Source of the DNA: Catajapyx aquilonaris | Lineage: Eukaryota | DNA length: 20,000 nt | NCBI GenBank assembly: GCA_000934665.2 | Contig: JYFJ02001557.1 | Location: 56,606-76,605, forward strand | Direction: 5' to 3' | Part shown: one piece after another, positions 10,462 to 20,000 of the stretch | Layout of the letters: every line of letters starts with the position of its first letter | How positions within the stretch are numbered: the stretch's first letter is position 1 | Translations under genes and position numbers: made by a program | The notes under the pieces: generated by a model | The model's database searches: none | What the model was told of the DNA's origin: nothing | Seen by the model: the letters and a program-made list of their open reading frames with translations, nothing else

Positions 10462-10991
10462 GAGGGGTCTCAGATCAAAGGCGGCTAAGTCCATTTTTGG
10501 GGGGGTGTGACACAAATACGTCCAGCAATAGGACCGAAGCAGTGGTGGCGGAGGGGATATGATATCCGACTGCTAATCAGGAGGTACTGGGTTCGAATCC
10601 CGGTGCCGGCAACTCTAACCGTGGTTTCCCACGGTTCCTCCAGGAGAATTCCGGAGTTGTTTCCTAAACTAATAGGCCACAGCCGTCTCCTTTCTTTCCT
10701 ATCCTATCCGAAAAAGCGCAGTAAAAACGAAACGAAGAGTTCCAGTCAAAAAAAATCCCCCCCTAAAGAGCCGCCGGCTGATAACGGGTATGAATTATTA
10801 TTACTTCCAGCAATAATGTATTTTAATGTCATTTGGTATTAATTAATTGCACATTTTCGTATGTAGCTGAGCCGTGGCTACATATGGACGCAAGAATATT
10901 CAAGATGGTACCAGTGAAATAATCAGCAGTTTTTGCTGATTTTACGACCATAGTTTTTTTGAACTTAGCCGCCTTTGATCTGAGACCCCTC
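10462..10991. mobile_element. 530-bp non-autonomous TIR element, Sola2-like (GAG...CTC ends, 4-bp TSD)
   Basis: Perfect 29-bp TIR GAGGGGTCTCAGATCAAAGGCGGCTAAGT (10462-10490 / 10963-10991); direct repeat AAGT at 10458-10461 and 10992-10995. The superfamily call is inferred from the GRG termini plus 4-bp TSD. Confidence 0.85.
10532..10709 (+). mobile_element. tRNA-derived SINE, copy 1 (nested in the TIR element)
   Basis: Degenerate A-box, B-box GGTTCGAATCC (10590-10600) and anticodon-like loop CTGCTAA, followed by a non-tRNA body (CCGTGGTTT..CACGG..AATTCCGG..AATAGGCCACAGCCG..CCTATCC) shared with 19465-19643. Confidence 0.88.
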
Positions 10992-14339: not shown

Positions 14340-14487
14340 CAAGGGGGTAATCACTCGGCTGAAAAGTGTACACTGAAGTACCAAATTCAAGGAGTATCAC
14401 GGAGTAATAAAGAGTGAGGTACCTGAGGAGTACCAGGGAGTACCACTCCCAGGTGTACACCGGAGTACCGAAGTGATTACCCGCTTG
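14340..14487. mobile_element. 148-bp MITE with 8-bp TSD (P- or hAT-type), copy 2
   Basis: TIR CAAGGGGGTAATCACT ... AGTGATTACCCGCTTG; perfect TSD TTTGAGAC at 14332-14339 and 14488-14495; same orientation and internal sequence as copy 1 plus one extra GGAGTAC-containing unit. Confidence 0.92.
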
Positions 14488-14568
14488 TTTGAGACTTTTC
14501 ATGTCATGCCGTCACGGTAACAGCGAAAATTATTAAGTTTAGCTAATGCATGTGAAAGATATTAAATA

Positions 14569-14830
14569 CAGGGTGTTCCAAGTTCGTTGGACCCTTTATA
14601 ATAGCAGCTCTTGATAATAGTTATAGCTCTAGGAAATTTCGCTCAACGCTGCTATTTTTTGTAGCTTGTTGTGCCCCGATCCAGGTGCCCTTTATTCTAT
14701 AGCCACTGATGCATTAGACCACCTGATAGTACTGAGGCACCTGGATCGGGGTACAACAAGCTACACAAAAAAACTACTTCGGACGATATCAGTGATAAAG
14801 AAAAACATACAACAAACTTGGAACACCCTG
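14569..14830. mobile_element. 262-bp Tc1/mariner-type MITE with TA TSD and internal foldback
   Basis: 21-bp TIR CAGGGTGTTCCAAGTTYGTTG (14569-14589 / 14810-14830) with TA on both sides; internal 30-bp IR 14660-14689 / 14736-14765 (1 mismatch). Confidence 0.9.
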
Positions 14831-15059: not shown

Positions 15060-15209
15060 TAATGTACGGAAAACGAGAGAACGATCTGACATCATCGTTT
15101 CTTCCATTGTTGCTTTTAGTTGACACTGTTTATACCCATATTGTTCTGTGAAGGTATTTACATGGAAACCTTGATGACGTCAGATCGTTCTCTCATTTTC
15201 CGTACATTA
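15060..15209. mobile_element. 150-bp foldback MITE-like element
   Basis: 31-bp IR TAATGTACGGAAAAYGAGAGAACGATCTGAC (15060-15090 / 15179-15209, 1 mismatch), extending imperfectly inward. The terminal TA may be the TSD. Confidence 0.8.
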
Positions 15210-15343: not shown

Positions 15344-15349
15344 TTTATT
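15344..15349 (-). promoter_or_regulatory. Candidate polyadenylation signal (AATAAA) of the kinase gene
   Basis: tttatt on the plus strand, about 90 nt downstream of the stop codon at 15441. Confidence 0.5.
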
Positions 15350-15440: not shown

Positions 15441-16163
15441 TCAAGAATCAGTCCGCCAGCTCCTAGCCGAATCCACATCCGACTCTTGGTTGGCCATAAT
15501 CGAATATCTCCTCTGAACGATAGCCTCTTGAAGTGAGAGCATCAAGCTGTTCTCGATCCGGTTTGGTCCCGGAACAGATTTCTGTCTTGGAGCATGTGGT
15601 CGAAGCAAAGCCCTCTGGCGGATCAGCTGCGCAGAAGAAGGCCTGGGGAAGAGATAATGCGCAGGTGCACGGCTGCCAACGGCGCCATTTTGCTGCCCCA
15701 TGCGCCTCGGCTCTTCCTCAACCTCTTCTAACAAAGAGTGGGAATTTAGCTGCGATTCTTGATGGCAGACATCCTGTGACTCGGCTTGAATCCCGGCAGA
15801 CTCTTCCTCTTCCTCCTCTTCCTCCTCCTCCTCCTCCTCTTCTTCCAGGCTCTCTGGGGTGGAGGAAGAGGTTTCGGTCCTTCTCTGGGGCGCCCTCAGC
15901 ATCAGATCGTGATAAAGCTGCACGGAGCACGGCTCATTTCCTTCGCTTTCAAGCTCTTCGTCTCTCTCATTATCGAGGTTAGGCTCAGCTTGTCTCTCCT
16001 CTGGCAACATGGAGGGGATCTGTTGAAGCCGCTGGAGAATTAGGGTGAATCGGGGCCTGCACAGGCGTCGATGATGCCAGCACTGAGTGATGACTTCCTT
16101 CAGCAGAGGCGGCAGTTTGGTTGGCATCATGGGTGTGATGCCTTTCTTCATCATGGCCATAAC
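15441..16163 (-). CDS. Terminal coding exon of the same kinase (subdomains X-XI plus long acidic/low-complexity tail)
   Basis: Acceptor ACTCCACAG|GTT (phase 0) matches the phase-0 donor at 17865, giving a 1701-nt intron (16164-17864). The joined text REK|VMAMMKKGITPMMPTKLPPLLKEVITQCWHHRRLCRPRFTLILQRL contains the subdomain XI CW...RPxF motif. 241 codons including the TGA stop; GC-rich relative to flanks. Confidence 0.92.
   Translation of the reverse strand, partial: VMAMMKKGITPMMPTKLPPLLKEVITQCWHHRRLCRPRFTLILQRLQQIPSMLPEERQAEPNLDNERDEELESEGNEPCSVQLYHDLMLRAPQRRTETSSSTPESLEEEEEEEEEEEEEEESAGIQAESQDVCHQESQLNSHSLLEEVEEEPRRMGQQNGAVGSRAPAHYLFPRPSSAQLIRQRALLRPHAPRQKSVPGPNRIENSLMLSLQEAIVQRRYSIMANQESDVDSARSWRTDS
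15801..15845 (-). repeat. Coding GAG/GAA trinucleotide repeat encoding 15 consecutive Glu
   Basis: Plus strand reads ctc/ttc x15 inside the kinase terminal exon. Confidence 0.95.
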
Positions 16164-17864: not shown

Positions 17865-18048
17865 CTTTTCCCTTCCAACACCAAAAAATGGAGGCTGTCC
17901 TGACACCATCTCAGACATAAGGACTCCAAAGCTGTACACGTCACTTGCAGGCGAAAATTCCGCCCGGAGGAGCTGCTCTGGAGCCAGCCATGCGGTGTTC
18001 ATTGATTCAATACAACGAAAGCCGTTCCTAGGTCCTTCTTCGTATAAC
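17865..18048 (-). CDS. Internal exon of a TKL-group (MLK/ILK/TEX14-like) protein kinase, subdomains VIII-X
   Basis: Translation LYEEGPRNGFRCIESMNTAWLAPEQLLRAEFSPASDVYSFGVLMSEMVSGQPPFFGVGREK contains W-x-APE, SDVYSFG and G-x-x-PF motifs. Acceptor TTCCAACTTGCAG|G (phase 2) and donor AAG|GTAATG (phase 0) on the minus strand; 184 nt. No upstream exons recognised in 18049-20000. Confidence 0.93.
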
Positions 18049-19464: not shown

Positions 19465-19643
19465 GACCGGCATAGGTTGGCATAGTGGATAAGGCGTCCG
19501 ACTGCTAATTGGGAGGTCCTGGGTTCGAATCCCGGTGCCGGCAACCTGACCGTGGTTTTCTGTGGTTTTCCACGGTCTTTCTATGATAATTCCGGGGTCG
19601 CTTCCGTATAATAGGTCACAGCCGCTTCCTTCCTTCCCTATCC
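19465..19643 (+). mobile_element. tRNA-derived SINE, copy 2
   Basis: A-box TGGCATAGTGG (19478-19488), B-box GGTTCGAATCC (19522-19532), tRNA-Arg-like GGATAAGGCGTCCGACT, CCGGCA/TGCCGG acceptor-like stem; about 100-nt body homologous to copy 1. Confidence 0.9.
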
Positions 19644-19683
19644 TTGGAGGTTGAAAGGCAATGCTGGGCCAACCTCCCTAATA

Positions 19684-20000
19684 TCTATATAAATAAAGCC
19701 GTTTGTGAGTCTGTCTGTCTGTCTGTCTGTCTGCCAACCGTCATTTGCCTGCCATTTTAGAACTTGTTCGATTGGTAAGTTCGACGTGCCTATCTGAATA
19801 TTATGGGTAAGTCCTGCTATTACCCATCAATTGCGATTTGCGAACCTCACAAGCTCAGACATTGTTGGCAAAGCGGTCGGCACTATAGCAAAATCACTTG
19901 AATTCCCCAAAATATTAGAGGTTGCCAAATATATTAAACATCCCTTATTCATTCAGCTTTAGAATAGCTGTGGCGTCACAATGAGCAACGATATTTTTAT
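19684..20000 (+). mobile_element. Putative 5' part of a non-autonomous Helitron-like element
   Basis: A|TCTATATAAATAAAG followed within about 25 nt by (GTCT)6, the usual 5' layout of microsatellite-carrying animal Helitrons. The 3' CTAG end is not seen, so the extent is uncertain. Confidence 0.55.
19709..19733 (+). repeat. (GTCT)6 microsatellite
   Basis: gtctgtctgtctgtctgtctgtctg read directly. Confidence 0.95.

Follow-up and report, generated by a model that had tools for sequence, protein, structure and literature searches.

Introduction

Nucleation-promoting factors (NPFs) of the WASP, WAVE, JMY and WHAMM type end in a WH2 helix with an LK or LR motif (W), an amphipathic helix (C), and an acidic stretch with a Trp (A). 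In the WH2 mode of actin binding, the helix lies in the cleft between actin subdomains 1 and 3, and the Leu-Arg rests on actin residues 23–26. The known WASP-family activators are defined by a few N-terminal domains. The portion of PMC3298513 available to us describes the WH2 pattern as two large hydrophobics, two spacers and I/L, with I-[KRQ], a linker and L-[KR]-[KR]-[VTA], and the C pattern as three hydrophobics spaced by three, an R/K doublet and a closing hydrophobic. WHIMP (mouse Gm732) is a lineage-restricted, weak Arp2/3 activator with a single WH2 and a terminal Trp, according to the accessible sections of PMC7112243. The pseudokinase ILK acts on actin through its partners' WH2 motifs within the ILK-PINCH-Parvin complex, as set out in the accessible part of PMC6203859.

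The first-pass annotation of a 20,000-nucleotide stretch of Catajapyx aquilonaris DNA (the window) proposed that a kinase or pseudokinase encoded there ends in a WCA-like module of its own. We found no such kinase or pseudokinase in the literature covered, most subscription papers lying outside that scope, and in the main text of PMC3298513, so far as it was accessible, the word "kinase" occurs twice, in one place within the name of IRSp53. Here, we examine the gene model, the tail and its relation to these systems.

Results

Gene model and upstream exons

The window forms the end of contig C685 in a genome of 286 Mb. Its minus strand at 15441–15650 translates exactly into the tail of about 70 residues reported in the first pass, with all the named motifs present, and the stop codon, a TGA at 15441–15443, terminates a 257-codon open frame. 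The tail belongs to a single last coding exon (15441–16163, minus strand) that is open across 240 codons and holds the end of a TKL-type kinase fold, an acidic linker, the WCA-like tail and the stop. The kinase portion comprises helices G–I (16020–16163, minus strand) and aligns to PF07714 profile positions 212–258 (E 7.6e-13 with a kinase HMM built in this work). The linker (15672–16016, minus strand) spans 115 residues with a net charge of −30, low AlphaFold2 confidence and no polyproline, and contains a run of 15 Glu (15801–15845, minus strand). A penultimate exon (17865–18048, minus strand) covers PF07714 profile positions 164–215 (E 4.7e-11), which correspond to the activation segment, APE and helix F (kinase subdomains VIII–IX). 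It starts in phase 2 and joins the last exon across a canonical GT-AG junction with matching phases. An AATAAA hexamer, a candidate polyadenylation signal, lies about 90 bases past the stop (15344–15349, minus strand), and third-position GC declines from 0.68 in the kinase end through 0.61 (linker) and 0.53 (tail) to 0.39 after the stop. Because of the splice sites and their phases, the AATAAA and the fall in third-position GC past the stop, the protein very likely does end with this tail, encoded by a spliced last exon. Our kinase HMM finds no other kinase exons within the window.

Beyond the left end of the window, downstream of the gene, lie a selenium-binding protein gene (SBP56; L003, 4425–6877, plus strand) and an intronless Arf-family GTPase gene (L004, 7721–8362, minus strand). 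Copies of a tRNA-derived, SINE-like element occur at window positions 10540–10720 and 19476–19650 (Rfam tRNA match at 19476–19543, 38.9 bits) and, judged by eye, on contig C4726 as well. Inspection by eye also reveals, downstream of the gene, a dispersed repeat in two near-copies on the same strand (1410–1550 and 14340–14490) and two short elements with inverted arms (14570–14830 and 15060–15200).

The upstream half of the kinase was sought by inspecting 38 hand-picked loci from two kinase searches of the same genome (190 and 150 matches). Contig C4726 carries TKL-type exons for subdomains I–VII and runs off its start without VIII–XI. Its last exon ends in phase 2, the phase in which the 17865–18048 exon begins, and the five C4726 exons joined to the two window exons read through 552 residues with no stop and encode a complete kinase fold (subdomains I–XI, 173.9 bits with our HMM). 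PF07714 is the best Pfam family in all kinase exons of C4726 and the window, and both gene halves are TKL-type and single-copy in the genome. Repeat comparison shows that the contig end, which falls within the upstream intron, is repetitive (19757–20000); this segment and the start of C4726 correspond to consecutive stretches, in the same orientation, of a single inverted-repeat family. We infer with high confidence that the C4726 exons belong to the same gene as the window exons. The start codon and the GC-AG first intron of the 552-residue model are guesses, and by eye we recognized no further coding exons in the remainder of C4726.

The other 37 loci inspected are other kinases and were rejected; C9294, an intact HRD/DFG tyrosine kinase that also stops at a contig end, was put aside on kinase type alone. 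The foldback-like inverted-repeat family has a copy on contig C5727 (L182, 625–2798) with arms at 1021–1257 and 1863–2099. Many kinase copies that resemble one another are also present in the genome (L019, L030–L032, L163–L165, L170 and L173); most are intronless, they carry a long insert and some are frameshifted. We take them to be an expanded eIF2-alpha-kinase-like family.

Kinase catalysis depends on the β3 Lys, the helix C Glu, the HRD Asp, the catalytic-loop Asn and the DFG Asp. The seven-exon model retains the β3 Lys (VAVK) and lacks the helix C Glu; HRD is replaced by HGN, the catalytic-loop Asn by His and DFG by MLS. Since the HRD Asp, DFG Asp, helix C Glu and loop Asn are lost, the product is most likely a TKL-type pseudokinase that would be devoid of catalysis, if the contig link holds. 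On that proviso, the pseudokinase half of the original "kinase or pseudokinase" proposal stands and the active-kinase half falls.

The best PDB matches of single exons are RIPK4 (1.2e-7) and CTR1 (3.9e-7), and one exon matches MLK1/MAP3K9 at 2e-7, level with bacterial PknA. Because the matches to RIPK4, CTR1, RIPK3 and MLK1 reach only 1e-7 to 1e-5, the pseudokinase cannot be assigned to a kinase family. These TKL kinases, with TNNI3K, provide the closest single-exon matches, but the tail protein, unlike them, has lost the catalytic Asp and DFG. The HGN exon matches ILK weakly (E 0.001) among many TKL kinases, which does not make the protein an ILK relative, and no ankyrin repeats were found in it. 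The N-terminal 85 residues, encoded by two exons, contain a short heptad-like stretch and match no Pfam family. Searches of the 552-residue model, to which more 5′ exons may belong, revealed no PPP/polyproline or CRIB motif, nor any WASP-family N-terminal domain (WH1/CRIB, WHD, WAHD or WMD) or proline-rich region.

Elements of the tail

For comparison, we used 33 WASP and 8 WASH ends, with the tail itself excluded and WAVE and WHAMM unrepresented. These 41 relatives were themselves retrieved with a mixed WASP/WASH/tail profile that gave 48 matches among 8000 scored sequences, none with a kinase Pfam domain. The seven matches dropped are four WASPs with WCA insertions, one WASP without its last WH2, a truncated WASH and an unrelated bacterial protein.

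The W segment (15594–15650, minus strand) emerges from the model and pattern tests as a degenerate WH2-like element consisting of a helix, I-R, a four-residue linker and L-R-P. The first-pass annotation had called QLIRQRALLRP WH2-like; the I-R, the linker and the L-R are present, and the Leu-Leu pair and the terminal Val of a WH2 are not. Ser-Ala occupies the first two helix positions, where all 41 relatives, whose ends were cut out by that same WH2 motif, have large hydrophobics, and the final Val is replaced by His. W misses two of the three defining WH2 hydrophobics. The Pro in third place of L-R-P is found also in both WASPs of this genome. The full published WH2 pattern, as we coded it, is too strict, matching only 1 of the 41 true members. 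Depending on the matrix, 6–11% of shuffles reach the score of W alone, and an HMM of W alone gives no signal (1893 of 3000 shuffles score as high).

The C segment (15495–15551, minus strand) follows the published pattern in the part of PMC3298513 available to us, reading L-x3-L-x3-I, then Arg-Arg (15507–15512), then Tyr/Ile. AlphaFold2, run without an alignment, gives the tail a mean pLDDT of 53.5 and a pTM of 0.19, with helices at W and from C onward; the latter is the most confident stretch (pLDDT 76). The C helix is thus upheld by both pattern and prediction. The pattern alone is present in 40 of 1720 background frame ends, the tail counted, and in 337 of 20,000 shuffles, and a three-part test built on it passes just 2 of the 33 WASP ends and none of the 8 WASH ends. 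Scored alone, C is reached by 0.15–7% of shuffles depending on the matrix, WASH being best (154 of 100,000). An HMM of C alone shows no signal, 2077 of 3000 shuffles scoring as high, and awards the genome's second WASP only 3.6 bits as well. The hydrophobic moment of C is 0.31 over 11 residues, against 0.48 and 0.19, and 0.02 over 13 residues. Overall, C combines WASH-like residues with WASP-like spacing.

By residue counts, the A segment (15444–15494, minus strand) is a weakly acidic end, net −2, with its Trp (15456–15458) five residues from the C-terminus. Of ESDVDSARSW, proposed earlier as the A region, the terminal Trp holds up and the acidic stretch does not: the six residues before the Trp include 1 acid versus 3–6 in all 41 relatives, outside the family range, and 2 basic residues lie near the Trp versus 0 in all 41. 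The first pass had already judged the acidic region weaker than in canonical NPFs, correctly on these counts. The Trp sits at −5 in the tail versus −2 or −3 in all 41 relatives, and at −7, −8, −2 and −7 in this genome's two WASPs, WASH and WAVE. The acidity of the linker, with its 15 Glu codons, lies upstream of W and not in A. In principle, it might contribute charge or pack back against the basic W and C segments. RRYS within C we take to be a PKA-type site, and the serines in A presumably form an S-x-x-D phosphorylation site, both by consensus; speculatively, phosphorylation at these positions might tune activity.

The tail as a whole

The three elements occur in the order W-C-A with gaps of 3, 16 and 22 residues, all inside the WASP ranges of 3–5, 14–19 and 21–29. 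An HMM built from the 33 WASP WCA ends scores the tail at 9.8 bits, a value reached by 0 of 2000 shuffles (best 8.7). The same HMM gives 9.7 bits to this genome's true WASH VCA, 5.7–15.0 to the eight WASH ends and 20.7 to the last exon of its WAVE. Among 3853 background frames, the whole last exon ranks sixth with composition correction off, behind only WASP, WASH and WH2 loci, and falls outside the top ten with the correction on. A W-linker-C matrix ranks the tail fourth of 1720 frame ends from the same genome, directly after three true NPF ends, with a score of 16.1 versus 6.5 for the next frame end.

WASP-range spacing combined with a mixed WASP+WASH matrix, both picked after the tail was seen, leaves 1 of 500,000 shuffles and 0 of 500,000 random sequences at the tail score; the one matching shuffle is without a Trp in its last eight residues. 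Under the same tight spacing, which on the last 85 residues gives the genome's intron-bearing WASP only 15.4, single-family matrices are matched by 37 of 100,000 shuffles (WASP-only) and 0 of 100,000 (WASH-only), and with loose spacing the WASP-only matrix is matched by 19 of 3000. A Trp falls within the last eight residues by chance in 10.7% of cases, a factor of about 0.11.

Direct searches return little. The tail matches no Pfam family, has no usable match in the ESM Atlas and retrieves only three chance exopolyphosphatase matches from the PDB; BLASTP produces no alignment with the end of the genome's own WASP. Such searches are blunt across families, though not blind, because the control ends do get matches: the WASP end matches N-WASP at 4e-10 and WAVE1 at 0.003, and the WASH end matches no WASP or WAVE, only the Cordon-bleu WH2 at 0.002. 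Pairwise alignment with the genome's WASP lies above shuffles (12 of 1000 reach the score locally, 3 of 1000 globally); with its WAVE the counts are 5 of 2000 locally and 132 of 2000 globally, and with its second WASP or its WASH the tail is not clearly above shuffles. Among pre-screened candidates from the whole genome, the tail is absent from the 9 matches to PF02205 and from the 2 matches to the genome's own WASP W+C. A profile comparison, proposed in the first pass, is thus positive for our WASP-WCA HMM and negative for Pfam, the PDB, the Atlas and the W-only and C-only HMMs. By sequence, the likeness to a WCA as an ordered whole exceeds chance; the parts are weak, and the signal resides in order, spacing and position. 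As for the WCA claim itself, the W-C-A order, WASP-range spacing, C pattern and Trp survive these tests, and the WH2 core and acidic A do not.

No orthologue was recovered among 97 longer proteins found with the tail, 23 candidates found with the penultimate exon or 596 metagenome candidates for the tail. Against 1.84 billion representatives, the last exon gives 21 matches and no orthologue; 20 are generic kinases, aligned over the kinase end only, and we rejected as spurious the remaining one, a repeat protein covering 20 tail residues. A search of the ESM Atlas with the kinase exon retrieves only generic kinase clusters. All five orthologue searches used the tail or last exons without the N-lobe, with tools that need shared words or short queries. 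This absence is weak evidence, reflecting divergence or sampling more than the tail itself, because searches with the kinase part likewise retrieved no close relative. Named WASP relatives of the genome's own WASP end come mostly from insects and crustaceans, and on that basis we regard the gene as arthropod.

Structural models of the tail with actin

Modelling with G-actin, a check put forward in the first pass, placed the W segment in the WH2 site of actin. ESMFold2 was given the 75-residue tail and a full-length metagenome actin, a match 99% identical to the genome's own actin exon. Tail-actin scores were 0.87, 0.87 and 0.86, against 0.00–0.01 for three controls; the runs have at least 47% of their contacts in common, with a partner pLDDT of at least 48 (about 50). 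The score, calibrated on solved complexes without peptides or disordered chains, reaches the mark in 51 of 78 solved complexes and 2 of 108 mismatches (71 of 105 and 2 of 126 for eukaryotes).

The confident interface covers tail residues 7–25 only, on actin 24–29, 144–149, 168–170 and 342–356, numbered one higher than in mature actin. The modelled W helix sits in the subdomain 1/3 cleft with the Leu-Arg on the 23–26 segment, so that the predicted pose matches the WH2 mode, partly as described in the accessible portion of PMC3298513. In the model, the Leu preceding the Ile is the main residue in the cleft, a shift of one position from the sequence register; the modelled interface includes neither C nor A. 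The 19 residues placed on actin coincide with those assigned to W in the collinear alignment, although by sequence W is the weakest of the elements. Because WH2-actin structures have already been solved, the ESMFold2 pass may reflect likeness to those complexes, and it speaks for likeness rather than for binding. Overall, the tail probably contains an actin-binding W(C) module.

W also overlaps an RPEL-like RPxxxQL, and RPxxxQL-[I]-R-Q aligns with the second half of the RPEL motifs in this genome. RPEL (PF02755) shares with the tail the R-P-x3-[E/Q]-L core and the residues that follow, and it binds the same actin cleft; the tail differs in lacking the first helix, the helix before RP being broken by prolines, and in scoring at chance on an RPEL profile (1.8 bits, 170 of 3000 shuffles, versus 10.9–26.1 for left-out members). 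It is not among the 10 PF02755 matches in the genome (12 candidates). RPEL binds actin by a cleft-and-ledge mode, according to the available sections of PMC2583105, and the model contacts actin 23–26 instead. We therefore rejected RPEL membership on the missing first helix, the core that matches only in half, the chance-level score and the different contacts. Either motif, WH2 or RPEL, would mean G-actin binding.

Discussion

The closest sequence comparison is with WASP/N-WASP. The tail shares the W-C-Trp order at the C-terminus, spacings within the range of the 33 WASPs, and I-R, L-R-P and L-x3-L-x2-A-x3-R in register; unlike WASP, it is without the WH2 Leu-Leu and final Val, has nearly no acidic run and places basic residues beside the Trp. 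Its protein has no WH1, CRIB or polyproline and carries a pseudokinase upstream instead. The C helix, L-M-x2-L-x3-hydrophobic-x2-R-R-x2-I, fits the WASH VCA best, and WASH ends are the least acidic of the relatives, with 5–9 acids in the last 20 residues versus 4 in the tail. WASH nevertheless differs in its longer WH2 linker, in having 39–51 residues after the C Arg (22 in the tail), in its acids right before the Trp, and in an N-terminal domain not seen in the tail protein. The protein may work like a WASP-family activator, yet is not to be filed as one, because the WH2 helix, acidic stretch, proline-rich region and N-terminal domains fail their tests.

WHIMP offers a model for how such a tail could work; it is unlike the tail in being WAVE-related and in having a recognizable WH2 and acidic peptide, and no kinase fold is among the domains named in the accessible sections of PMC7112243. 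ILK resembles the tail protein as a dead-kinase scaffold for WH2-type actin-binding motifs, although these motifs are located on its partners and bundle F-actin, by the account in the accessible part of PMC6203859, whereas the tail protein has the motif in its own chain.

Our preferred single reading, to which we give somewhat less than an even chance, is a pseudokinase scaffold that delivers a weak WCA and so acts as a weak Arp2/3 activator. At about 550 residues, the protein would be a scaffold that begins with a short helical stretch, continues through an inactive TKL-type kinase fold and an extended acidic linker, and closes with a degenerate WCA. The pseudokinase and N-terminal helix might localize or gate it; the W segment, as modelled, would hold a G-actin monomer in the subdomain 1/3 cleft with its Leu-Arg on 23–26; and the C helix, free in the actin model, could engage Arp2/3 together with the terminal Trp, as their pattern suggests. 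Because the acidic region is poor, the outcome would be a weak or phosphorylation-dependent NPF, WHIMP-like rather than WASP-like. W and A lie within the kinase's last exon, and canonical NPFs are encoded elsewhere, so the WCA-type module either was inserted long ago or arose in place. More tentatively, the protein could represent a new type of Arp2/3 activator, with a TKL pseudokinase in place of the WH1, WHD, WAHD or WMD targeting domains, a WCA that arose in the kinase's last exon and an A region completed by phosphorylation.

A somewhat unlikely alternative is that the resemblance arose by chance in a fast-evolving, mostly disordered extension, whose amphipathic helix and PKA-type site serve another partner, and that ESMFold2 merely puts a helix into actin's promiscuous cleft. 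Each element is indeed weak alone, the defining residues of W and A are missing, no relatives with the tail were found, BLASTP does not align it to the genome's WASP, and the finding was drawn from a very large scan, in which a 1-in-100,000 resemblance can occur by chance. Against this, the ordered, spaced and C-terminal match recurs in only 0–37 of 100,000 shuffles before the Trp is counted, the model picked the same 19 residues as W with all three controls near zero, and pairwise scores beat shuffles against the genome's WASP and, locally, its WAVE, if not clearly against the second WASP or WASH.

We regard as unlikely a second alternative, that the tail binds G-actin without activating Arp2/3, as a monomer sensor or sequestering motif of WH2-like or half-RPEL type, with C as a second actin-binding or self-folding helix; such a protein would at most compete with true NPFs. 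The sole structural support concerns W, the A region fails the family range, and the RPEL-like core of W could be read this way; C and the Trp, however, fit WASP spacing and would be unneeded by a plain actin sensor, and the RPEL form suffers from its 1.8-bit score, broken helix and contacts unlike the cleft-and-ledge mode. An error in the gene model or decay of the gene, with C4726 exons from another gene or a tail of read-through sequence, is very improbable: the halves lie on different contigs with no joining read or transcript, the first intron and start codon are guessed and only 38 hand-picked loci were inspected, but the seven exons are stop-free and form a complete fold from complementary subdomains with phase 2 on both sides, the single-copy TKL-type halves end collinearly in one repeat, and the last exon combines its long open frame with raised GC3 and a polyadenylation signal.

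If the tail works as in the preferred reading, it would provide a new means of bringing in Arp2/3 and would parallel the ILK arrangement within one chain, possibly connecting signalling scaffolds with the cytoskeleton in a new way. It would also be a natural test of the extent to which W and A can decay while C and spacing stay, and would suggest that degenerate WCA modules go unnoticed by Pfam and by sequence searches. Should actin binding alone be real, it would still be unusual for a pseudokinase to carry an actin-monomer motif of its own; if the likeness is due to chance, what remains is a single-copy arthropod pseudokinase of no assigned family.

The genome contains Arp2 and Arp3 genes, two WASP-like genes (L009 on C569 and L011 on C2834), and WASH and WAVE elsewhere; with these NPFs present, the tail is unlikely to be a stray fragment of a canonical NPF that the genome otherwise lacks. 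The second WASP-like gene is largely one 463-codon frame, and because its C helix is degenerate (Pro and Arg at the start) and its Trp lies at −8, divergent WCA ends do exist in this lineage. A last exon that we label WAVE/SCAR-like by motif (L194 on C566, 1321–1611, plus strand) has a serine-rich acidic end with its Trp at −7 and is missed by PF02205. Seventeen giant-virus contigs (L063–L079) carry actin-like genes 67–72% identical to the genome's actin.
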